A DNA stretch of 64,000 nucleotides from Acidiferrobacterales bacterium (GCA_046760105.1 JBHIDJ010000005.1:4557-68556); one strand, 5' to 3'. Numbered from the stretch's first letter, positions 6,870 to 56,081 are shown. Made by a program: numbers and translations. Notes: generated from the letters alone by a model not told the origin.

Positions 6870-6945
6870 AAACCAGGCCGATAATTGCACACGTCGTGGT
6901 AAGGGTACATCTCTCCCATTGGCAGGTGGCTGCAAGAACTGGTAA

Positions 6946-8550
<1,605 letters not shown>

Positions 8551-16839: not shown

Positions 16840-17069
16840 TTAAGGCTCAGCGCCATCCCCGACAACCTTGTCTATACTCCTTTAATGTGCCCCCCGCCCC
16901 GCGTCTGGCGGGGTGCGCGCGCTTAGCGCCCGTGAGGCCACCGGTTCTTGACAATGAGCGTCTCGGCCCTGCCCTGGAACGGCGTAGGGGATCGTCAAAG
17001 CCCCTCATGTGCAGCCGAAAGCCGAGGCGAATGAAGCTCGAGCGAACCCAGGCGCGGAGGCTGACTCAT

Positions 17070-17085
17070 TGGCACAGTACTTGCT
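17070..17085 (+). promoter_or_regulatory. sigma-54 (-24/-12) promoter
   Basis: TGGCAC-AGTAC-TTGCT matches the TGGCAC-N5-TTGCW consensus with correct GG/GC spacing. It lies about 65 nt upstream of the TTG start at 17151. Confidence 0.65.
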
Positions 17086-17150
17086 GGTTCAAGCAATATG
17101 CACGTCTACCAATAAGTAACTCGTCAAGAAGTCTCAAAGCGAGCAGTAAC

Positions 17151-18983
17151 TTGAGCATTTTTTCGAAAGACTGTCCCCAGTGTGGAGAAACCAACGCCGC
17201 GTACGCGGTGAGCTGTCGCTGCGGCTTCGCGTTCAACAGTGCCGACGAGGACAGTGAAGGCGAGGCCGATGCGAAACTCAGTCTGCAAGAAGAAAAGCTC
17301 TATCAGGAATATCTGGCCGCGCGCGCACAACAGGCCGCGACAGCGGCCTACGACGCGGCCAGACTGGCCGCCGCCCAGCCGGGTAACAACCTAAAGGTCA
17401 AAGAGGCGGAACAGGCGAACGCGACGGCTGAAGGGGCAAAGGCGGAACTCGCGGCCCACCAGGCCAAGTTGGGCGTAATTGGTAGCGGCCTGGGGGCCCC
17501 CATGGCGGCACAGGCCAGCGAGGCCGCACAAGCGGGCGACGACAAGCAAACGCCAACTCAAACCACCAAGGTCGATCACGCGCCCGTCAACAGCAAGCAC
17601 ACCACGGTTCCTACACCTACCGCCCCCGCCACGCCCACCCCACCAACGACGCGCACGGCCGCGGGGCGCGAAAGCGCCACAGCGCAGTCCGACAAACTCG
17701 CTGCCGCTTTGTCGTCCACGCCAATACAAAACAATGGCCCGTCCATAAAGCCCACAACGCCGGCGGCGAGCGTGCAACGCGCTGCGAAACCCGTTGGCGC
17801 GGCCCTAGCGTCCATAGCAAAGGCGGCTGATCCCGATAAGCCGAAGCCTGCGACTGCGTCGGCGCGCGCGCAAGCAACCGACAGTAGCGCAACCCCCACT
17901 GCCCCAAAGTTGAGCGCGCCGCCCTCTAAAGTCGAGGCCGGTGGGTCGCCAACGTCAGGAGCTCAAGCCGCCGATAACGACGCGAGTTCGGAACCCACGG
18001 ATACTGCCGACAGGTCGCTTGGCAGCCAAGAACTGGGCGCGGACGTGAAGGCGGCTGCTGCCCGCGCCAAAAAGCTTGAAGAAATGTTAAGGGCGGCGCA
18101 GGCCAAGCGAACGGCCAAATCACGGGCGGCCGCCGCTAAGGGTGCTGAGCAGCAGGCCGCGGCGACGCAGGTGACAGCGACCGCGCGAACCGCGACCGCT
18201 GCCGAGAGAACAACAAACCCAGTCGCTACGGCAACCAATTCCACATCACCGACACTCCCGGCGATACCGAAGGAACCTCGGCCTGAACAAGCGATTGCCG
18301 AGAATCCCAAGCAAGCGGTAAAAGACGTGGACGCCAACCAAGGCGGGCCCGCAACGGAACTGATGGACTTCTTCCCACCGCCGGAACCCGTAGACACCAT
18401 AGAGGCCACCGCTGAGGCTGAGTCTACCAACGATGACACGGCGCTGCCGCCGGACACCGCGTCCCCGTCGGTCGATGAGGCGATGCCAGTCGAACGCGCC
18501 GACCACTCAGTGACCGCCGACGACGCCACTAACGCGTCCGCGGCGGCGGCATCGACATCACCGGCCGCTAGCACAACAACCGATACGCACGAGGAGCTTA
18601 TGGCGGCATTGCGAGCGCTCGAGTCGTGTGGGCCGGGAGCCTCGATAAACGAGGCCGCGGAGGCGGACGCGAGCACCGATGCGCCTAAAGGCGCTAATGA
18701 GACGCGGCAGGAATCGACGGCCGCGCTCGACACACTGGCCGCAGCCTTGGATCAAGAAAAACCAGCGACCTCTCCGGCGGCGACATCGGATACATCGGAC
18801 AAGCAGAATATGAAGGATTGTCCAAACTGTACCGCATGGATACCGCGGGATGCACAGCAATGCGGCTGCGGATTTGCCTTCCCGGCGGCCGAAGAGAAAA
18901 TGCCCTCGCTATCTTTGAGCGATTCAGACGTTGCCGCCCTTGGCAACAGTACCCAATCGTCGGGTATTACCCGCCTAAACTAA
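17151..18983 (+). CDS. zinc-ribbon / coiled-coil / low-complexity / zinc-ribbon protein (paralog 1)
   Basis: Start trimmed from 16887 to the in-frame TTG at 17151, because the N-terminus then reads MSIFSKDCPQCGETNAAYAVSCRCGFAFN. That aligns with the first residues of the paralogs at 52524..53240 and 54916..55581. It has about 450 aa of Ala/Pro/Thr-rich sequence and a second CPNC..CGCGFAF ribbon near the C-terminus. Confidence 0.7.
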   Translation: MSIFSKDCPQCGETNAAYAVSCRCGFAFNSADEDSEGEADAKLSLQEEKLYQEYLAARAQQAATAAYDAARLAAAQPGNNLKVKEAEQANATAEGAKAELAAHQAKLGVIGSGLGAPMAAQASEAAQAGDDKQTPTQTTKVDHAPVNSKHTTVPTPTAPATPTPPTTRTAAGRESATAQSDKLAAALSSTPIQNNGPSIKPTTPAASVQRAAKPVGAALASIAKAADPDKPKPATASARAQATDSSATPTAPKLSAPPSKVEAGGSPTSGAQAADNDASSEPTDTADRSLGSQELGADVKAAAARAKKLEEMLRAAQAKRTAKSRAAAAKGAEQQAAATQVTATARTATAAERTTNPVATATNSTSPTLPAIPKEPRPEQAIAENPKQAVKDVDANQGGPATELMDFFPPPEPVDTIEATAEAESTNDDTALPPDTASPSVDEAMPVERADHSVTADDATNASAAAASTSPAASTTTDTHEELMAALRALESCGPGASINEAAEADASTDAPKGANETRQESTAALDTLAAALDQEKPATSPAATSDTSDKQNMKDCPNCTAWIPRDAQQCGCGFAFPAAEEKMPSLSLSDSDVAALGNSTQSSGITRLN

Positions 18984-19170
18984 CGAATGCCGCCGTGCCC
19001 GCGGCGACGAGTCACCTTTCGTTGATATAATTGTAGCTACTCCGTAACGGTGCCACCGCACCGCTGGTGCGGGTCATCACCGCGGTAGTCGCAACCTGCT
19101 GCGATCCAAGCTTTACAACGGCCCTGCTCTCCGGCACCTTACATTGTTCGTTTTCACGGAGGCCCCACAG

Positions 19171-20511
19171 ATGTCAATGAATAGTTATGAAGAAAAAAAA
19201 CAACACCTTATCCAACAACTGCGTACCCAAGAGAGTGGACCGATCCGGCTCAATAAGGCCACATCCAATCTGTTTCGCGACCGCAAGACACCCGATCATC
19301 ACAAACTCGACGTCAGCGACTTCAAACAGGTGCTTGCGGTAGACCCCGATGGTCTGTGGCTGGAGACCGAGGGTATGACCACGTATGAAGACCTCGTGAA
19401 CGCCACGTTACCCCACGGCGTGTTACCGACGGTCGTGCCGGAGCTGAAATCGATCACCATTGGTGGTGCCGTGACTGGCGTCGGTATAGAGTCATCGTCC
19501 TTCAAGTACGGGTTGGTGCATGAAACCATAATGGAAATGGAGGTACTACTGGCTGATGGTACTGTCATCGCCTGTACTCCTGACAATGAACACAAAGAAT
19601 TATTCTTCGCGTTCCCCAATTCCTACGGGACGCTCGGTTACGCGCTGAAATTGAAAGTCAGGGTTGTCCCCGCAAAACGATATGTGCAGCTTAATCACAT
19701 TCGTCATACAGACGCGCGCGCGTACTTCGAAGATTTGGAACGCACGTGCGACCAAGAGGTAGACTTTGTCGATGGTACTATCTTCAACCCTGATGAAATG
19801 TACATAACAACGGGCAAATTTGTCGAGCAGGTGCCCTATACCAGCGATTACACATATGAAAACATCTACTACCAATCCATTCGGCGACGTGAGGTCGACT
19901 ACTTAACGACATTGGACTATGCCTGGCGTTGGGACACTGACTGGTTCTGGTGTTCAAAGCATTTCTACGCACAAAACCTGTTGGTACGCGCATTCGTGGG
20001 GAAGTCCTACCTAAATTCGGTGACCTATACGAAGATTATGCGCTGGAACACCAAATGGCGGCTCACCCACCGGATGAACCGACTGGCCGGCATCCACCGC
20101 GAGTCAGTCATACAGGATGTGGATATCCCCATCGACAAGGCACCGGCATTCTTGGATTTTTTCCGTACGGAGATAGCCATCGCACCGATTTGGATATGTC
20201 CCCTACGCGTCCACGACAAATCCGTCCGTTTCGACCTCTACCCCATGAATCCTGACACGACCTATGTCAACTTCGGCTTTTGGGACGCGAAACGCGTGCG
20301 CAGAAAGCTTCCCGCCGGTTACTACAACAGGCGCATCGAGGACAAAGTAGCGGAACTGGGTGGTATCAAGTCGTTATACTCGGATTCATACTTTTCCGCC
20401 GATGAATTCCGCGAACGATACAACGGACCCGCCTATGAACGGCTCAAGGCCAAGTACGACCCAAACGCGCGCCTAAAACATGTCTATGATAAATGTGTTC
20501 TTAAACAATAA
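19171..20511 (+). CDS. FAD-binding oxidoreductase (PCMH-type, DHCR24/DIMINUTO-like)
   Basis: ITIGGAVTGVGIESSSFKYGLVHE..EVLLADG..ELFFAFPNSYGTLGY resembles the FAD-binding domain of delta24-sterol-reductase-like proteins. ATG at 19171 lies 8 nt after GGAGG. Confidence 0.75.
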   Translation: MSMNSYEEKKQHLIQQLRTQESGPIRLNKATSNLFRDRKTPDHHKLDVSDFKQVLAVDPDGLWLETEGMTTYEDLVNATLPHGVLPTVVPELKSITIGGAVTGVGIESSSFKYGLVHETIMEMEVLLADGTVIACTPDNEHKELFFAFPNSYGTLGYALKLKVRVVPAKRYVQLNHIRHTDARAYFEDLERTCDQEVDFVDGTIFNPDEMYITTGKFVEQVPYTSDYTYENIYYQSIRRREVDYLTTLDYAWRWDTDWFWCSKHFYAQNLLVRAFVGKSYLNSVTYTKIMRWNTKWRLTHRMNRLAGIHRESVIQDVDIPIDKAPAFLDFFRTEIAIAPIWICPLRVHDKSVRFDLYPMNPDTTYVNFGFWDAKRVRRKLPAGYYNRRIEDKVAELGGIKSLYSDSYFSADEFRERYNGPAYERLKAKYDPNARLKHVYDKCVLKQ

Positions 20512-21016: not shown

Positions 21017-22993
21017 ATGACCTCTGACGGCAGTATTAGTAAACCCCTGGGTAGACGGCTTGGCGACTACCAACAGTGGCGCGAGCAGTTGATCGCCAGG
21101 ATCGAGAACTACCAGTCGTGGATCGAGCAACAGGGTCTCGCCGATGGCGAGTCGGATCTGCGCGTCTATGAGCTCATCGACAGCCTTAAATCCGACAAGC
21201 TCACGATTGCAATAGTAGGCGAGTTTTCACGCGGCAAAACCGAACTCATCAATGCGATCTTCTTTGCCGACCACAAACAGCGCTTGCTACCTACAGAGGC
21301 CGGCCGCACCACCATGTGTCCGACGGAGCTGCGCTTCGATGAAGACACACCACCGTCCATCAAGCTGCTGCCGATTGGCACGCGGCACGGCTCTGAGACG
21401 ATCGCCGAACTAAGGCGTTCTTCCGCTTATTGGACCACACTACCGCTCGAGCTCGACTCGCCAACGAAGATAGCTAAGGCGTTTCACGAGATCGTACAAT
21501 CGAGGTCCGTCAGTACAGATGAGGCCCAGTCTTTAGGCCTTTATGACCCCGATACGGCCGCTGGCAGCGAGCAAGTAAGAATCCCCGTGTGGCGTCACGC
21601 GATTATCAATTATCCGCACCCACTGCTAAAGCAGGGGCTCGTGCTGCTCGACACTCCCGGATTGAATGCCCTTGGTAGTGAACCCGAACTGACGATGAGC
21701 ATGCTACCAAATGCACACGTGGTGGTTTTTGTGCTCGCTGCCGACACGGGGGTGACGAGGTCGGATCTGCAAGTGTGGCAAAACCATGTATGTGTGGCGA
21801 AGGGAGATAAGAATGAGGGGCGCATCGTGGTGCTCAATAAAATCGACACGTTGTGGGACGAGTTGCGCGGCCCCGCCGCTGTGTCGGCGAGTATATCGCG
21901 TCAGGCGCAGGAGACCGCAGCCGCGCTGGCCATGAGGAAAAGCCAGGTGCTCCCGGTGTCCGCACAGAAAGGATTGGTCGGCAAAGTCAAGGAGGACAAC
22001 GAACTTGTCGAGAAAAGCGGGTTACCGGTGCTCGAGACCAAGTTGTCAGAGGACATCGTCCCCGCTAAACAAGCGCTCATCCGTGAAAAGGTCGTACAAG
22101 AAATTGGCAGTATAGTCGAAACCACCGCGGCGACGGTCGATGCAAGGCTGTCCGCGACGAACGCAGAACTCAAGGAGCTCAAAGGAATGAGTGGAAAGAA
22201 TCGAGACGTTATTCAAAACATGATGGCGAAGAGACAACAGGATAAAGAAGCCTACAACAAAAAGCTGGCAAATCTTGAAAACACCCACCGCCAGCTCGGT
22301 GAGCAAGCTAAAATCCTGTTGACGTACCTGAGCATCGAAGCGTTCGATGCTCTAATCGACAAAACACGCAAGGAAATGAAGGACAGCTGGACCACGCATG
22401 GACTTAAGCGCGGGATGAAGACGTTCTTCGACGGCGCCATGCAAACAATGCGAAAGGTCCGCAAACAAACCGAACATATCAAGGGAATGGTCGAGGGGAT
22501 CTATCAGCAGTTCCAGATCGAGCATGGGCTCGCCAAAATCAAGCTCGAGAGCTTCGCATTGGAGCCTTACTACCGGGAGCTTACACGCTTATACAAAGAG
22601 GCCGAGGTATTCCGCAATAGCCCGACTATGGTCATGACCGAACAGCATTTTGTGGTCAAGCGGTTTTTTATCACGTTGGTGAGCCGTGCACGTCAACTGT
22701 TCGACGAAACCAACAAAGGTAGCGAGGCATGGAGTCGTGCCATAATGGCGCCCGTGTTTGCCCGCATCCGCGAGCACGAGCTGACAATGGATCAACGCGT
22801 CGAAAATCTGAAGAAAATTAACCGGAACCTGGAAACACTCAACGGGCGCATTGCTGAGCTGGAAGCCCTCAAGCAAACGCTGGAAAGTCAACAACAAGTC
22901 AACCAGGATATCCTGAAGGGCATCAACCAGCCGTTACCAGCAAACAAAGAAATTGAGCCCGGGTGTGCGGCCACCGCCCACGGCGCGCTGTAG
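21017..22993 (+). CDS. bacterial dynamin-like GTPase
   Basis: 658 aa. G1 is IAIVGEFSRGKTELINAIF, G3 is LLDTPGLNA and G4 is VLNKID. A long helical/coiled-coil C-terminal region follows. Confidence 0.85.
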   Translation: MTSDGSISKPLGRRLGDYQQWREQLIARIENYQSWIEQQGLADGESDLRVYELIDSLKSDKLTIAIVGEFSRGKTELINAIFFADHKQRLLPTEAGRTTMCPTELRFDEDTPPSIKLLPIGTRHGSETIAELRRSSAYWTTLPLELDSPTKIAKAFHEIVQSRSVSTDEAQSLGLYDPDTAAGSEQVRIPVWRHAIINYPHPLLKQGLVLLDTPGLNALGSEPELTMSMLPNAHVVVFVLAADTGVTRSDLQVWQNHVCVAKGDKNEGRIVVLNKIDTLWDELRGPAAVSASISRQAQETAAALAMRKSQVLPVSAQKGLVGKVKEDNELVEKSGLPVLETKLSEDIVPAKQALIREKVVQEIGSIVETTAATVDARLSATNAELKELKGMSGKNRDVIQNMMAKRQQDKEAYNKKLANLENTHRQLGEQAKILLTYLSIEAFDALIDKTRKEMKDSWTTHGLKRGMKTFFDGAMQTMRKVRKQTEHIKGMVEGIYQQFQIEHGLAKIKLESFALEPYYRELTRLYKEAEVFRNSPTMVMTEQHFVVKRFFITLVSRARQLFDETNKGSEAWSRAIMAPVFARIREHELTMDQRVENLKKINRNLETLNGRIAELEALKQTLESQQQVNQDILKGINQPLPANKEIEPGCAATAHGAL

Positions 22994-49470: not shown

Positions 49471-50298
49471 CTAGAACTCCTGCGTGTCGCCCGGTTTCAT
49501 CACGATGACCGTGGCTGGGAAGCCGCCGAGCGCCTTCTTTAACTGCTCGGGTGTGCCCTTCAGCGGTGGAAATGTGCCGTAGTGCATAGGGATCACTTTT
49601 TCCGTTTTCAGGAGGTTGCGCACGGCATAGGCAGCGTGGTCTGGGTCCATAGTAAAATGCCCACCGATGGGAAGCAGCGCGACATCAGGCTGATAGTACT
49701 CGCCAATAAATTTCATATCACCAAAAACGCCCGTATCGCCGGCATGGTAGATCTTGAGGCCGTTCTCTAATTCGATGATGTAACCGGCGGGCTCGCCCCC
49801 GGGGTGAACGGTCTTTTGCTTAGTCACGGGATCGGTATGCACCACCTCGGAACTGTGTTCGGCGCGCACCATCGTAATCGTAATACCAGGACCCAGCGGG
49901 GTTATGGGGCCGCTTTTGTTAAAGCGGATCAGTTGCTTGTACGGTACCCATCCGAGCGTGGCAAAGGTGTGCCCCATGTCAGCATTCAAACCGACTTTAG
50001 CCCCGCTCGTCTTTGCGATTTGCGCCGTATCCCCTATATGGTCACCGTGACCGTGCGTAACAAGAATAAGGTCCACGTGACCAAGCTTTGTCAAATCTTT
50101 AAGTTTCTCGGGCGTCTTTGGGTTCTTGGTAATGAAAGGATCCACCAGGATAACCTTGCCGCCCGGCGTGGTGATCTTGAAGGCGGCCTGCCCAAGCCAT
50201 TGCAGCTTGACCACCTCAGCGTATACCACCCCGGAGGCATACATTAGAGAAAAAGCAACCAACGCGCTTGCCAAGACTCGGGAAATGTTTCTTCGCAT
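49471..50298 (-). CDS. metallo-beta-lactamase-fold hydrolase (UPF0173-like), exported
   Basis: LILVTHGHGDHIGD motif. Start trimmed to ATG 50298 (GGAGGGAGGAG RBS, signal peptide). Confidence 0.8.
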   Translation of the reverse strand: MRRNISRVLASALVAFSLMYASGVVYAEVVKLQWLGQAAFKITTPGGKVILVDPFITKNPKTPEKLKDLTKLGHVDLILVTHGHGDHIGDTAQIAKTSGAKVGLNADMGHTFATLGWVPYKQLIRFNKSGPITPLGPGITITMVRAEHSSEVVHTDPVTKQKTVHPGGEPAGYIIELENGLKIYHAGDTGVFGDMKFIGEYYQPDVALLPIGGHFTMDPDHAAYAVRNLLKTEKVIPMHYGTFPPLKGTPEQLKKALGGFPATVIVMKPGDTQEF

Positions 50299-50444
50299 AG
50301 CTATCTCCTCCCTCCGATAGAAATAAAAAATGACGTTCCGCCTGGCTATCATGCCATGCCCGCGGTCCATATTACACGCTAAAGCATTGGACGAGCTTGC
50401 CCATTGCGCAGCGTGCTTTCTGCAGTATGTGTTACACTGAACTG

Positions 50445-52337
50445 CTACCCGTGCAATCCCGCTTTGCGCAGGCCGTTGAGGAGCTTTTCGAGATGGGCTG
50501 GGTCCTTATAGGGAATAACCTGCTGCATCCGTCGCAACGAGAAGTCAGGAGCCAGGGTAACGAGTTGCTCCACCTCCCACTCGGCATCGTCAATACGTCC
50601 CGCGTGCGCATAACTAGCAGCTAACCACATGCGTGGGCGCTGGGCAACGGGGTTGCGCTCGAGCGCTCTCTCGAAGGCATCGATCGCCTTGTCGTATCGC
50701 CCGAGAGTGAAGTAAATCTCACCAAGGACGTACAAGTAGTCGAGAGGATAGCGCGGATTGAGGCGCATCGCTTTTTCCATCAGCGCCACACTGTCCTTCG
50801 GCGTGCCCGCGTAATGCAAGGTCAATGCGAGCAGGCCGTAGGCGTCCGCATGGTTCGCATCGAGAGCAATCGCCTTTTCCACCTCCTCAATAGCCTCTGC
50901 ATGATGCTTACTGAAGAGGTGCACTTCGCCCAGGACCCAGTGAACCTGAGGGAGTGAGTCGTCGAGAGCGACGGCCCTCTGCGCCAGCTCATGGGCTTGC
51001 TGGAGCGATCGCTCAGGCGTGTCGCTCCAGCCGTCGACAAATTCCCGTGCATAAGTGCGAGCGAGGTTAGCGTAGGCGCGCGCAAACTCCGAGTCGCGCT
51101 CAACGGCTTTTTCGTAGAAACCGCGCGCGCTCAGATTGCTTTCTCTTGTAAGGCGTGAGAATTGCTCAAGACCACGGAGGAGGTAATCGTAGGCTTCCAA
51201 GCTGTCGGTGTATTGTCGCACCAGGCTTTGGCGTTCAGTCTCCGTCAGTCTGATCTCCAGAGCCGAGACGATCTTTGCGGCCACTTCGTCCTGCAATGCA
51301 AACACGTCTGTCAGATTACCGTCGAAGCGATCGGCCCAGACGTGAAATCCGTTAGTCGAGTCGATAAGCTGCGCAGTGATACGCACCTTATCGCCCGCCT
51401 TGCGCACGCTGCCCTCGAGCACATAACGCACGCCGAGTTCGCGACCCACATCCCGGATTTTCACGGGTATGCCTTTGTACGTGAATACCGAGTTTCGGGA
51501 GATAACAAAAAGGCCCGAAAGCTTTGACAGATCAGTAATCAGGTCTTCGGTCATCCCATCGCTGAAGTACTCCTGCTCCGGGTCTCCGCTCATGTTCTGG
51601 AAAGGCAGCACGGCGATGGAAGGCTTCGCGGGAAGCTCAAGCGATGCCCCTTCGGACACACGCTCAATCACGTCAGGGGTAGCGCGTAAATGGAATTGCC
51701 ACAACGCCGCGACGCCAACCACTATCAACAAGGTGGCCATCACGATCAAGACCATTGGCCGCCACTGTTGCAGGCGGGATCTTAGTTTTTTGCGTGCGTC
51801 GGCCGCGTGCGCGTCTATTTGCACATGGAAGGCACGTACCGGCCGAGTAATGTTCTTTACCGACTGCTCACCGATAAACTCGTAAGCGAATGGCAGCTTG
51901 GTTCCGATGGCGTCGTAGACGGTACCGGAAACGCAGATCCCACCGGGTTGTGCGAGACTTTCAAGCCGCGCCGCTACGTTTACTCCATCGCCATAGATCT
52001 CGTTTCGGTCGACGATGACATCGCCTAGATTCACGCCAATGCGAAACTGAAGCTTGCGCTCCTCGGGTAGGTCTTCGTTTCGTGCCTTGAGGTGGCGCTG
52101 GATCTGCGCCGCGCACGTTAGCGCGTCAACGATGCTGCTAAAGTCGGCAAGTACAGCATCGCCGGCAAAGTGCAGAACCTTCCCCCTGTGGTGCTTAATG
52201 GCGGTGGTGATCGTATCGAGATAGGCACTGAGGCGGCGGTGCGTGCCCTCCTCGTCTTCACCGGTCAGCCGACTGTAGCCGGCCACATCAGCATAAAAGA
52301 TCGCCGCAAGCTTGCGTTGCAGATGCTCGTTACTCAT
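50445..52337 (-). CDS. class III adenylate/guanylate cyclase, TM, TolB-N-like and TPR sensor protein
   Basis: N-terminal cyclase domain (AAIFYADVAGYSRL, FAGDAVLADF, RIGVNLGDV), one TM segment, a periplasmic-type module and C-terminal TPR repeats. Start trimmed to ATG 52337. Confidence 0.8.
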   Translation of the reverse strand: MSNEHLQRKLAAIFYADVAGYSRLTGEDEEGTHRRLSAYLDTITTAIKHHRGKVLHFAGDAVLADFSSIVDALTCAAQIQRHLKARNEDLPEERKLQFRIGVNLGDVIVDRNEIYGDGVNVAARLESLAQPGGICVSGTVYDAIGTKLPFAYEFIGEQSVKNITRPVRAFHVQIDAHAADARKKLRSRLQQWRPMVLIVMATLLIVVGVAALWQFHLRATPDVIERVSEGASLELPAKPSIAVLPFQNMSGDPEQEYFSDGMTEDLITDLSKLSGLFVISRNSVFTYKGIPVKIRDVGRELGVRYVLEGSVRKAGDKVRITAQLIDSTNGFHVWADRFDGNLTDVFALQDEVAAKIVSALEIRLTETERQSLVRQYTDSLEAYDYLLRGLEQFSRLTRESNLSARGFYEKAVERDSEFARAYANLARTYAREFVDGWSDTPERSLQQAHELAQRAVALDDSLPQVHWVLGEVHLFSKHHAEAIEEVEKAIALDANHADAYGLLALTLHYAGTPKDSVALMEKAMRLNPRYPLDYLYVLGEIYFTLGRYDKAIDAFERALERNPVAQRPRMWLAASYAHAGRIDDAEWEVEQLVTLAPDFSLRRMQQVIPYKDPAHLEKLLNGLRKAGLHG

Positions 52338-52523
52338 GGGAAATCGTCGCTGTTGGTTCGAGCGAAACGATGATGCTGATCCTACCGCGAGAGGTCTGGG
52401 TGATAAAGCGTGCAAACGAGCTACTTACACGTCAATCGGAAGACATCCCCGGTAAAAACTGGAGTAGCAATCAGAGTAGAAGTGAACCAGGTCGCAGCCA
52501 TGACTCCAGCTACGCCGGTGATG

Positions 52524-53240
52524 CTAGCGAGGCTTGGTGGGTTTCTTGCTCCCCAACTGTTCTGTCAGTTTGGCACGCTCGCCCGTCCTTCGTGTCTGAG
52601 ACGCCGCGCCGCGCTCGGGCAGAGATCGCGGTACCGACCACCCGCAACCACAGGCCGTTGCCGCCACAGAGATCGTCGCACCACATGCGGGACACGTCAT
52701 TGTTTCAAGGTCCTTCGCCGCTTCAACCGCCCTATCCGCCTTGGCCGCTTGTGCAGCTCTGAACGCCGGGCCAGGTCTAGACGTCTGACCTTTAGCTTTT
52801 AGGACCTCTGCAACGATTACCGCTTGCCAGGATTGGTTAACGTTAGCGCTAGCGGTATCAGCAGGTTGGCTGACTTGCGCTGGTGCGCCGATACCTGCCC
52901 CGAGTTTGTTTTCGGCCTCCGCCACCCGGGTGCGCTGTTCAGACAGATCGGCCTGTGCCACCTCCGCATCGAGTTGTGCCACGGCTGCTTCCACCGCTTT
53001 GCGCGCATCATCCTGATCCACATCAGCACGATGGGCGGCCGCTCTGGCCGCTTCTACCGCCTGCTCAAGCCGGGCCGTCAAATACTCTTCAATCAGTTTT
53101 TCCTCTCGAACCGAGAGCTCCAGGGCCAAGCGCGGGTCTTCCAGATAAAGCGGGTTAAACAGGTACCCGCACCCACATTGGACGGCCCCGGCAGCGTTAG
53201 CGGCCCCACATTCGGGGCAGGTTTTTTCAAACTTGCTCAC
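52524..53240 (-). CDS. zinc-ribbon / coiled-coil protein (paralog 2)
   Basis: GTG start 9 nt after GGGAGG. MSKFEKTCPECGAANAAGAVQCGCGYLFNPLYLEDP..REEKLIEEYL.. It has a second ribbon, CPACG..CGCGW, near the C-terminus. Confidence 0.75.
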   Translation of the reverse strand: MSKFEKTCPECGAANAAGAVQCGCGYLFNPLYLEDPRLALELSVREEKLIEEYLTARLEQAVEAARAAAHRADVDQDDARKAVEAAVAQLDAEVAQADLSEQRTRVAEAENKLGAGIGAPAQVSQPADTASANVNQSWQAVIVAEVLKAKGQTSRPGPAFRAAQAAKADRAVEAAKDLETMTCPACGATISVAATACGCGWSVPRSLPERGAASQTRRTGERAKLTEQLGSKKPTKPR

Positions 53241-53630
53241 GCTAAAATGCCTCCCACCGGTTCAGGGGTAGCTAGATGGAGAAGTCTAACGGTAGCGACA
53301 AATGCGCCTTCAGACGGAAAACTGACTTGGAGTGAAGCCGCACACCGGCTCCGTATGGGCGATCCCTGAGGTTTAATGTCCTTCACAATACACCCCTCTA
53401 CAGGCCTATTATAGACCATGAACGACGCTGACCAATGCTAGGGCGCATTAAACTGGCGTTGACGAGGAGCGAATGAGTCGGAAGCGGTGGTTACGGCGTA
53501 CCCCGGTTTGGGCGCCCAGGAGCTTCTTGTGCGCTGCACCACAGGCATCGGCACGCCAGTCGAGGGTCATACAAGCCCAGGTCCTGCGGCAACCAGGAAA
53601 AAACGGGGTTGGTAAAAGACTCGGAAGAAA

Positions 53631-54791
53631 CTACGGGCTCACCAGCCGGTACACATTGCCATTGAACGATAGGATATAGAGCTCGCCGCTCGCATCCTCT
53701 CCGAACGAAGCGACGCTTCCCAGATTGCCTACAGTCCACTCACGCCTGTCGGTGGCGATGCCATTTGCATACACAAAGCTTCGTAGGAAACTGGTACAGA
53801 AGTCGGAGTAAAAATAGTGCCCCTGAAGCCCAGGGATTCGGTTTCCGCGATAGACATAACCCCCGGTGATTGAACAACCTTCACCGTGCCCGTATTCGAG
53901 CGCTGGTACAACAAGACCGCTCGTGTTGCAGGAACTACTACCAAAACAGTGTGCGCCCTCCATGATATTCCAGCCGTAATTCAGACCACCTGCGGTATTC
54001 GATGCGACGCTGACCTCTTCCCAACTACTCTGTCCCACATCCGCGATAAATATTAAATCAGCCTGACGATCGAAAGACAGGCGCCAAGGGTTTCTAAGCC
54101 CATAGGCCCAGATTTCGGCACGCGCATTCGGATTCCCCACAAACGGATTATCAGACGGGATCGCATAGGGATTGCCCGCATCCACATCGATTCGCAGCAG
54201 GGCGCCGTGCAATGTATTCAGATCTTGACCGTTACCGAGAGGATCACCGCCGCCGCCGCCATCGCCCATGGCTATGTACAACATGCCATCCGTGCCGAAC
54301 AGAATGAGTCCGCCATTATGGTTGGAGAACGGCTGTGTTACCGAAAGAATCAGTCGGTCCGGATTTGGATTAGCAATATTAGGATTTGCACTTACGCTGT
54401 AACGCTCAACACGTGTATCCCCGTTTGTGTCGGTATAGTTGACATAGAAATAACCGTTGGATACGTATTCAGGATGGAACGCTAGGCTGAATAACCCCCG
54501 CTCACCGCCACTCGACACCCTATTCGAGATGTCCAGAAACGGCGTCGCCAACAGCTGGCCGTTTTCGACAATACGGATGCGACCTTGTTGTTCAACGATT
54601 AACAATCGGGGATCCGAGGATGGTGCAGTGAGGTATAGCGGATCAGCGAGCCCACTTGCTACTACCTCGACCGCGAGTTCTCCCGTGAACACCGGGGGAC
54701 CGTTGCCGCCAGATGAACCGCCGCCGCACGCACTCAACCCCAGAAGACACAGGATGACTAATGCCGAACGTTTAATAATGGAACTCTCCAC
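53631..54791 (-). CDS. PQQ-dependent sugar (glucose/sorbosone) dehydrogenase-family lipoprotein
   Basis: Lipobox LLGLSA-C. Beta-propeller motifs ..GERGLFSLAFHPEY.., QPFSNHNGG.., GDGGGGGDP..NGQ...L.G..LRIDV. Confidence 0.82.
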   Translation of the reverse strand: MESSIIKRSALVILCLLGLSACGGGSSGGNGPPVFTGELAVEVVASGLADPLYLTAPSSDPRLLIVEQQGRIRIVENGQLLATPFLDISNRVSSGGERGLFSLAFHPEYVSNGYFYVNYTDTNGDTRVERYSVSANPNIANPNPDRLILSVTQPFSNHNGGLILFGTDGMLYIAMGDGGGGGDPLGNGQDLNTLHGALLRIDVDAGNPYAIPSDNPFVGNPNARAEIWAYGLRNPWRLSFDRQADLIFIADVGQSSWEEVSVASNTAGGLNYGWNIMEGAHCFGSSSCNTSGLVVPALEYGHGEGCSITGGYVYRGNRIPGLQGHYFYSDFCTSFLRSFVYANGIATDRREWTVGNLGSVASFGEDASGELYILSFNGNVYRLVSP

Positions 54792-54915
54792 TCCTCCTCC
54801 TAAGGACCGGTGAACCCCATCTTATTTCGCATAAGGTTGCCGGTCCAGCAAAATAAGTCTGTTCCCTGATTGGCGCCTTGTTCGATCTGACAGCAGCACG
54901 CCGACCCAAGAACGG

Positions 54916-55581
54916 CTATTCGCGTTTGATGGGGCCGCTCATCTCTACTTCCTCGATGAAGACAGGGTCCTCATCGACCTTTGTTTGCAGCGGCAACAGA
55001 TTCAGCTTGCGCACGGTAGCACTTACGACCTTTTCGGCCTTGGCGGCTTGCGCCGCCTTAAACGCTGGGCCAGGTTGCTCGCGAGAAGTTACCGATGCCT
55101 CGCCTTCCAGTTGACTTCCGGTCTCGCGCAAGCTTGCTGCCTTCAGCGCCTCAGTGACAACAATCGTTCGCCAGGAGCTTCGGTTCGGAGCGCTAGATCG
55201 GACGCCATTAGAATCGCTCAGTTGATCGACGTCAGCGATATGTGCACGCAGTCGAGCTTCCGCAGCGCGAGCGCGTTGTTCAACAACTCCGGCCTTGGCG
55301 GCCCTGGCGGCGCGCTGAGCACGGGTGGCCATTAACAGTTTGCGTTCACTTTGCGGGTCTTGCAAGACAGCTTGTACCGCTTCCTTGGCAACCTCGACCG
55401 CCTGTTCGGCACGCGCAGCCAGATACTCTTCAATGAGCTGTTCTTCCCGCGCGGCCTGCTCCAGGGCCAACTGCGGATCTTCCAGATACAGCGGGTTAAA
55501 GACATAGCCGCAAGCACAATGAACAGCGGCGGCAGAGTTCGTGGCCTCACACTCAGGGCAAGCCTTATCGAAGGTACTCAA
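54916..55581 (-). CDS. zinc-ribbon / coiled-coil protein (paralog 3)
   Basis: Start trimmed from 55692 to TTG 55581 (AGGA 7 nt upstream), so the N-terminus MSTFDKACPECEATNSAAAVHCACGYVFNPLYLEDP..REEQLIEEYL aligns residue-for-residue with paralog 2. Confidence 0.7.
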   Translation of the reverse strand: MSTFDKACPECEATNSAAAVHCACGYVFNPLYLEDPQLALEQAAREEQLIEEYLAARAEQAVEVAKEAVQAVLQDPQSERKLLMATRAQRAARAAKAGVVEQRARAAEARLRAHIADVDQLSDSNGVRSSAPNRSSWRTIVVTEALKAASLRETGSQLEGEASVTSREQPGPAFKAAQAAKAEKVVSATVRKLNLLPLQTKVDEDPVFIEEVEMSGPIKRE

Positions 55582-55853: not shown

Positions 55854-56081
55854 TCACGATGCAGGCTTGTCGCCGCTCCCAGGCACAGCCGCCTCAGCTG
55901 CTTGGAATCCGACCCTTGAATGGGTCCCATCACAGAACGGTTTGGTGGTTGAACCGCCGCAGCGACACAAGGCGAATGGGCGCCGCATGACCTGATACTC
56001 ATTGCCGTTCCAGTCGACCAGCTGTACGTCATCACCTTCCACGAGATACGGTCCGTTTTGCTTAACAGTAATCTTGATCAT
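55854..56081 (-). CDS. CDGSH iron-sulfur domain protein
   Basis: 75 aa with CRCGGSTTKPFCDGTHS (the C-x-C-x2-S/T-x3-P-x-CDG-S/T-H signature). Confidence 0.88.
   Translation of the reverse strand: MIKITVKQNGPYLVEGDDVQLVDWNGNEYQVMRRPFALCRCGGSTTKPFCDGTHSRVGFQAAEAAVPGSGDKPAS

Follow-up and report, generated by a model that had tools for sequence, protein, structure and literature searches.

A zinc-ribbon and helical-hairpin protein family of Acidiferrobacterales-type bacteria, with a probable tandem duplication into which a sugar dehydrogenase gene appears to have been inserted

Among the closest described counterparts of the proteins considered here are two kinds of small zinc-ribbon protein. 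Proteins of COG1579 are about 240 amino acids long and consist of a long antiparallel coiled coil with a C-terminal four-cysteine (C4) ribbon (PMC5947703); they bind RpoN, secretion ATPase partners and mRNA. Ruc of Mycobacterium tuberculosis, a zinc ribbon joined to a disordered C-terminus, becomes active as a chaperone when oxidised (PMC7448276). Here we describe three proteins of comparable build encoded in a 64,000-nucleotide stretch of DNA from an Acidiferrobacterales bacterium (GCA_046760105.1, JBHIDJ010000005.1:4557-68556), the whole of which we call the window: two short paralogs, A (52524..53240, minus strand) and B (54916..55581, minus strand), which lie on either side of a gene for a pyrroloquinoline quinone (PQQ)-type sugar dehydrogenase, GSDH, and a long paralog, C (17151..18983, plus strand). 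The likeness to COG1579 covers a size of about 240 amino acids, an antiparallel coiled coil, a C-terminal C4 ribbon, a cytoplasmic location and the lack of an enzymatic domain, but there is neither sequence nor profile similarity, and the proteins of the window differ in having an extra N-terminal ribbon, a hairpin that is shorter and a linker that is disordered. Like Ruc they are small cytoplasmic proteins in which an N-terminal four-cysteine ribbon gives way to a variable hydrophilic region, without any other domain; however, the ribbon of Ruc belongs to another family (FmdB), and where Ruc ends in 7-61 disordered residues, a conserved hairpin, which is folded, and in most cases a second ribbon are found here. 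The ribbon pattern F-K-x-C-x-x-C-G-A-T-N-x-x-x-A-x-x-C-x-x-C-G-Y also recalls that of ribosomal protein eL40, but NF003161, with a cut-off of 54 bits, gives 15.1 and 10.8, the only PDB sequences matched by a profile were eL40 ribbons at a non-significant E of 0.26-0.46, and the shared part amounts to about 23 residues of generic ribbon. For this reason the automatic names "ribosomal protein L40E" and "S27AE", which some members carry in public records (others are called hypothetical or, like SCL_1990, "UPF0547 domain-containing protein"), are mis-annotations.

Our preferred explanation, to which we give as a whole a probability of about 45%, is that A and B are tandem duplicates within a family of Acidiferrobacterales-type bacteria, that GSDH was inserted later, and that the proteins serve as adaptors or scaffolds. 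Its parts differ in strength: the statements about identity and evolutionary history we make with high confidence, while the function is put forward tentatively.

The first-pass annotation, made from the sequence by eye, estimated the identity of A and B at about 65% over their first 70 or so residues; counted, it is 69% (48/70). BLASTP aligns the two at E=4e-35 with 50% identity over 153 amino acids, a similarity far beyond chance, and both have the composition rich in alanine (21% in A, 19% in B), glutamate (9% and 11%) and arginine (7% and 8%) that had been described. The box PGPAF(R/K)AAQAAKA is likewise common to both, at residues 156-168 of A and 170-182 of B. At the DNA level they are 73% identical over the first 195 nucleotides and 79% over a 47-nucleotide stretch at the box; because identity reaches merely 73-79% even in these best-conserved stretches, recent gene conversion between A and B is not indicated. 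Paralog C, proposed as a third member, is related at 42% identity over 121 amino acids (E=8e-16), and a tblastn search of the whole window with the N-terminal domains finds exactly three copies. A neighbour-joining tree, computed without support values, places A and B in sister clades, each with its own orthologs (P0002-P0006 for A), and sets C and a short Sulfuricaulis clade apart; C is a third, older paralog. The ratio of non-synonymous to synonymous substitution against the related locus L003 is 0.14 for A and 0.13 for B (synonymous divergence being saturated); both genes are under purifying selection. Translation of A starts at a GTG with GGGAGG 8 nucleotides upstream, and that of B at a TTG behind a GAGGA ribosome-binding site; start and binding site of B are both kept in L003 and L001, and a longer, ATG-initiated open reading frame for B (to 55692) is not conserved in relatives.

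Paralog A, of 238 amino acids, is the two-ribbon form and matches PF10571 at 33.7 bits in two stretches. From its N-terminus, and in minus-strand coordinates, it consists of a C4 zinc ribbon, CPECGAANAAGAVQCGC (53169..53219, residues 8-24, located by regular expression, with a PF10571 match to residues 6-30); an antiparallel helical hairpin, H36-74 and H79-118 in AlphaFold2 models, with the signature EExLIEEYLxARxEQA (52887..53135); a helix SWQxxIVxExLKA (residues 135-150); the box PGPAFRAAQAAKA (52737..52775, residues 156-168), at the start of a helix 158-178 that leads into the second ribbon; the C-terminal C4 ribbon CPACGATISVAATACGC (52644..52694, residues 183-199), seen both as the second PF10571 stretch and as a TerY_C-like match; and a basic tail ending in KKPTKPR. 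Built on an alignment of 123 sequences, the AlphaFold2 model of A has a mean predicted local distance difference test score (pLDDT) of 80. It shows the first ribbon at 1-30, the hairpin with pLDDT above 95, a disordered segment at about 119-133, helices at 134-152 and 158-178, the second ribbon at 180-200 and a disordered tail; the ribbons score 88-92 (the C-terminal one 90-92), and the box segment reaches about 89 with a deep alignment. Paralog B, of 221 amino acids, is a one-ribbon form (PF10571, 29.7 bits) with the N-terminal ribbon, the hairpin, an SWR helix and the box PGPAFKAAQAAKA (55036-55074, minus strand). A second ribbon had been ascribed to the long paralog and to one of the short ones, which holds; the short copy that has it is A, the first by coordinate and the second in transcription order, and not the gene at 54916-55581. 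It is absent from B and from all B orthologs (P0007-P0010, P0035, P0270). Neither a signal peptide nor a transmembrane segment is predicted in A or B, and both are predicted to be cytoplasmic.

All three proteins exceed the gathering score of PF10571 (UPF0547; 29 bits), a 26-position hidden Markov model of a C4 ribbon, and all five of their ribbons fit it; the same tag is precomputed on most homologs. The model covers the ribbon only. In Pfam it is the sole domain found, the hairpin, SWQ helix, box and tail motif lying outside any Pfam or NCBIfam model; NCBIfam gives nothing above threshold for A, B or C, PADLOC gives 0 families, the best PHROGs match (E=4e-4) is confined to ribbon residues, and Foldseek searches of PDB and BFVD return no match at E<=0.001. 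A defence-system or phage origin was rejected on the results from PADLOC, PHROGs and BFVD. The claim that the family is uncharacterised thus stands as regards any characterised relative in Pfam, NCBIfam, PADLOC, PHROGs, PDB or Foldseek, with the correction that the ribbon itself was already known as PF10571. A literature search found no study of bacterial UPF0547 or of the ribbon-hairpin architecture, and mentions of UPF0547 were incidental. We regard the family as an undescribed variant of the broad zinc-ribbon/coiled-coil class, one of the many "conserved hypothetical" families that are confined to a single order.

When 1.84 billion cluster representatives (clusters at 50% identity) were searched exhaustively with a profile, 359 clusters fell to the family at E<=1e-3, or 276 at the stricter limit of E<=1e-10, with lengths of 81-690 amino acids; a word-indexed search had found merely 12 relatives with A and 20 with C. 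The core common to most of the 359 clusters is ribbon plus hairpin, and the family unit runs from an N-terminal C4 ribbon through a hairpin of about 80 residues (signature EExLxEEYLxARxEQA), a linker and a PxxxFRAxQAxKA helix to a second C4 ribbon. Linkers of roughly 30 to 430 residues separate the conserved end modules. In family alignments the invariant or nearly invariant positions, in the numbering of A, are K6, C8, P9, C11, C22, C24 and F28 of the ribbon (the cysteines across all 123 sequences), L49, Y53, L54, A56, R57 and Q60 of the first hairpin helix, Q102 of the second, P156, F160, Q164 and A168 of the box, and all four cysteines of the second ribbon; the consensus of the hairpin tip, [DE]P.[ND]..[KR]A, is weakly conserved. 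Tandem C-ribbons or double units occur within one polypeptide in P0034/P0288, P0040 and P0046. After the C-ribbon many long members carry the motif [DE]-hydrophobic-P-x-L-x-[LM]-S-x-x-E-R and a basic C-terminus. Two readings of short motifs were discarded: the likeness of PAFRAAQA to the C-terminal peptide of FtsZ (IPAFLRKQA), because the family motif PxxxF[RK]AxQAxKA is spaced differently, and an interpretation of the [LM]PxLxLS tail as beta-clamp-like, because A and B lack that motif.

Nearly all members with a named source come from Acidiferrobacterales, Sulfuricaulis, "Candidatus Muproteobacteria" or unclassified Gammaproteobacteria or Pseudomonadota, and the cultured Sulfuricaulis limicola, which has a complete genome and is placed by NCBI in Acidiferrobacterales, has the member SCL_1990, a short two-ribbon form. 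As far as named members show, A, B and C therefore appear to belong to a family restricted to Acidiferrobacterales-type Gammaproteobacteria. Two loci are labelled otherwise, L020 as a metagenome-assembled genome (MAG) of Bacteroidota and L026 as one of Candidatus Methylomirabilis; both show the Sulfuricaulis-type synteny of a family member, a conserved 109-residue protein called hyp109 here and ilvD at about 80% identity, and they are probably mis-binned gammaproteobacterial contigs. The MAG of the window (ACE5NW locus tags) holds at least four copies, the fourth, on another contig, being P0288 (ACE5NW_11335), a 670-residue fusion of two complete units with three C-type ribbons. Its public call is probably 17 amino acids too short, the annotated start falling inside the first ribbon (compare P0034). 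The lineage-specific expansion that had been suggested from three copies in 64 kb is supported because the members are lineage-restricted and because of this fourth copy in the same MAG.

We now turn to the arrangement of the genes around A and B, all of which lie on the minus strand. Listed as they are transcribed, they are ilvD (57851-56172), a gene for a CDGSH iron-sulfur protein (55854..56081; PF09360, E=5e-19), B, GSDH (53631..54791; PF07995, E=2e-42), A, a gene for a class III cyclase with tetratricopeptide repeats (cyclase-TPR, 50445-52415) and an exported metallo-beta-lactamase (MBL)-fold gene (49471-50370). This bears out the layout first described, with A and B flanking an exported PQQ-type dehydrogenase, whose translation opens with a lipoprotein-type signal ending in LSAC, and, by profile matches, with the CDGSH gene upstream and the cyclase downstream. 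A functional link to the dehydrogenase or cyclase had been implied, with conservation in related genomes as its check, and there the linkage is lost. We compared 33 related loci; the genome scan for them, made with the 123-sequence alignment, is biased to the Sulfuricaulis-type short clade. Among them GSDH stands upstream of A in L032 only, where its 3' end is seen; L032 is also the closest relative (A 79% identical, against 70% in L033). GSDH was not found in L033, L003, L004, L005, L001 or any Sulfuricaulis-type locus, and the cyclase-TPR gene is in none of the related loci long enough to tell. What is conserved is the upstream pair: L003 and L004 read ilvD-CDGSH-B-A, with B and A directly adjacent at a distance of about 390 nucleotides, L005 reads CDGSH-A-MBL, and L001 and L002 read ilvD-CDGSH-B-...-MBL. 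In L001 and L002 the CDGSH gene (6877-7095) is present and uncalled, and in L003 (4553-6273) and L004 (2-1631) a frameshift or an assembly error divides ilvD between two calls.

From these comparisons we propose, as the simplest history, that a tandem duplication beside ilvD-CDGSH in one sub-lineage would have produced A and B, that B would then have lost its C-terminal ribbon, and that one copy or the other would have been lost in some lineages. More recently GSDH would have entered the gap that separates B from A's promoter region, in the ancestor that the window shares with L032, and the cyclase-TPR gene would have been added on the downstream side of A in the window's own lineage. Since GSDH is absent from the relatives other than L032, and the cyclase from all those long enough to tell, the bracketing of the dehydrogenase appears to be incidental, a historical accident rather than operon design, with GSDH as a probable passenger gene. 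Its GC content of 0.52-0.55, against 0.55-0.61 in the flanks, does not mark it as foreign.

A probably has its own promoter. A TATAAT box, the predicted -10 element, lies at 53408..53413 (minus strand), about 165 nucleotides upstream of the start of A, with TTGGTC 16 nucleotides further upstream; the box does not vary between the window, L032, L033 and L003, and reads TATAGT in L005. A generic consensus scan, in which terminators came out at chance level, called no promoter here, the -35 element matching at 3 of 6 positions. Because TATAAT is also conserved where GSDH is absent, A appears to keep its own promoter regardless of the dehydrogenase. The leader of A (about 165 nucleotides; 53241-53435, minus strand) is conserved as well, and downstream of the box reads CC..TAGAGGGGTG. 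A riboswitch or other leader RNA was considered there and dropped, the RNAalifold consensus being weak (-3.9 kcal/mol); an Rfam search of the whole window gave nothing.

As to function, it is possible that A and B are soluble, cytoplasmic, zinc-dependent bivalent adaptors or scaffolds without an enzymatic domain; we hold this at low confidence, with zinc binding and partners predicted from the architecture. Ribbon and hairpin might form a constant docking or oligomerisation core, while the box helix and second ribbon might form a second binding site at a distance set by the variable linker. A would then be bivalent, and B a monovalent variant that could pair or compete with it. Consistent with a scaffold are the want of signal peptides and transmembrane segments, the variable linker between conserved end modules and the presence of several paralogs per genome, and the double-unit fusions suggest, by Rosetta-stone logic, that units act together. 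We think it improbable, though worth stating, that the unit of ribbon, hairpin, box and second ribbon represents a new class of modular tether, dependent on zinc and specific to this order. Its paralogs (bivalent A, monovalent B, C with its long linker and the double-unit fusion) would hetero-oligomerise through the hairpin and organise or redox-sense some cytoplasmic process peculiar to the sulfur oxidisers of Acidiferrobacterales; under this heading the zinc-thiolate sites might, for instance, act as a switch linked to the CDGSH or FAD flavoprotein genes nearby. Several points weigh against our preferred explanation. The only structure matches are to generic hairpins (E>=0.03: KpsE, HlyD, MacA, Vipp1/PspA/ESCRT-III, PACSIN and CT398), so that the architecture is the sole basis for proposing a scaffold; the neighbours FAD_binding_4, ilvD, PilZ and CDGSH may reflect plain synteny within one order; insertion of GSDH, as opposed to its loss elsewhere, was judged by parsimony over few loci and not on a species tree; and the neighbour-joining tree carries no support values.

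Among the alternatives, a nucleic-acid-binding regulator fares best, although we consider it unlikely. A and B might resemble CT398, HP0958 and MSMEG_4306 of COG1579, or DksA-type proteins, and touch RNA, DNA or RNA polymerase with their ribbons and basic tail. The AlphaFold2 layout of a helical hairpin with zinc ribbons fits this, and MSMEG_4306 has the same general layout (PMC5947703). The C-terminal tail of A has a net charge of +7 and its K-P-x-K-x-R end is conserved, one member was automatically named "predicted nucleic acid-binding Zn ribbon protein" (JGI), and CT398 (4ilo_A) is among the Foldseek matches with 188 columns aligned. That match, however, comes with E=0.9, a probability of 0.23 and a root-mean-square deviation of 31 A; PF02591 and PF01258 are absent even at E<=1; no DksA/Gre chain occurs in the top 50 Foldseek matches to PDB; the hairpin tip, where DksA/TraR factors have DxxDxA, shows the weakly conserved consensus given above; the modules are ordered differently, a ribbon standing ahead of the hairpin; and the proteins are acidic overall, with isoelectric points of 6.0 (A), 5.35 (B) and 4.7 (C).

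It is rather improbable that the proteins are redox-switched holdases like Ruc (Rv0991c) or Hsp33, in which oxidation of the ribbon would free zinc and expose flexible regions to clients. Acidiferrobacterales are sulfur oxidisers, and A, B and C all show an N-terminal four-cysteine ribbon followed by low-complexity or disordered stretches; a CDGSH iron-sulfur gene lies directly upstream of the A/B locus, and htpG is among the neighbours of family members in L009, L012 and L013. Such neighbours may, however, be plain synteny, and conservation of the cysteines is equally expected for a structural zinc site. Moreover, the most conserved part is the folded hairpin and not a disordered tail, and the models of the Ruc/FmdB family fall well short of their cut-offs (PF09723 at 16.4 bits against 34.4, over 11 residues only, and TIGR02605 at 12.0 and 10.1 against 31.3).

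That the proteins remodel membranes in the manner of PspA, Vipp1 or ESCRT-III, perhaps with the dynamin-like GTPase encoded near C, is very unlikely. Vipp1, PspA and CHMP chains do recur in Foldseek over 150-180 columns with probabilities of up to 0.96, and a dynamin-family gene is found near C and in L006 and L007, but the E-values are 0.14-1.1 with deviations of 16-47 A (above 30 A for the chains cited), there is no match to PF04012 or Snf7, a zinc ribbon stands in place of the N-terminal amphipathic helix, and in Sulfuricaulis-type loci the dynamin gene is no direct neighbour. Least probable of all, and hardly to be expected, is that A and B assist, regulate or help to assemble the dehydrogenase, possibly wired to the cyclase-TPR sensor: same-strand adjacency in the window and the GSDH-A junction of L032 speak for it, but GSDH is missing from the other relatives and the cyclase from all that are long enough to tell, B and A stand directly in tandem in L003 and L004, A has its own TATAAT box even where GSDH is absent, and GSDH has a lipoprotein signal that A and B lack.

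Paralog C, of 610 amino acids and on the plus strand in all its parts, matches PF10571 at 38.3 bits in two stretches, an N-ribbon at 17172-17222 and a C-ribbon at 18819-18869. Between its hairpin and C-ribbon runs a low-complexity linker of about 430 residues rich in alanine, proline and threonine, and its tail motif after the C-ribbon is EKMPSLSLSDSD. Orthologs of C (P0014-P0029) are always preceded by sucA-sucB-lpdA. The mechanical open reading frame of C runs 88 codons further upstream to a GTG (16887-17150, plus strand), an extension rich in arginine and proline that is not in the public 610-residue record; the TTG at 17151, the start originally chosen and that of the public record, is likely the true start, being aligned with the MSIF... 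start of relatives, although its ribosome-binding site is weak. Two genes downstream of C (21017-22993, plus strand) is the gene for the dynamin-like GTPase (Dynamin_N, E=1e-17), placed likewise in L006 and L007.

Between them, at 19144..20511 (plus strand), lies a FAD_binding_4 flavoprotein gene of the vanillyl-alcohol oxidase (VAO) type (PF01565). It is the most persistent neighbour of the family: in 23 of the 33 related loci this gene or a paralog of it lies next to a member, divergently, convergently or co-directionally (for example at 9042-10391 in L006 and 6437-7810 in L010). The window's protein is 60% identical to its counterpart beside the Sulfuricaulis limicola member, while in L006-L008 the position is held by a paralog of 38% identity on the opposite strand. 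The best PDB relatives of this neighbour are cytokinin dehydrogenase and DprE1, the match being limited to the FAD domain. Because the flavoprotein is uncharacterised and the whole family lies within one order, we treat the adjacency as a lead and not as evidence of function. In Sulfuricaulis-type genomes a short two-ribbon member has a FAD_binding_4 gene diverging from it on one side and a PilZ gene converging on it from the other, with ilvD and pyrD a few kilobases off and a second, long member beyond gspA/gspB. The convergence with a single-domain PilZ gene is seen in L010 (8001-8932) and 15 other Sulfuricaulis-type loci, and in S. limicola the two 3' ends overlap by 4 nucleotides. Next after PilZ in such loci comes hyp109, which has no Pfam match.

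The practical value of these results is modest. The family can now be defined by its signature, its architecture, some 360 clusters and its restriction to Acidiferrobacterales and their kin, and the automatic names "ribosomal protein L40E" and "S27AE" can be corrected. The locus illustrates how a tempting arrangement, two paralogs bracketing an enzyme gene, would be the outcome of an insertion into a tandem duplication and not a functional module. Because SCL_1990 belongs to a cultured organism with a complete genome, the function of the family is directly testable in S. limicola, and whatever is found would serve to annotate several genes in each genome of a whole order of environmental sulfur oxidisers.

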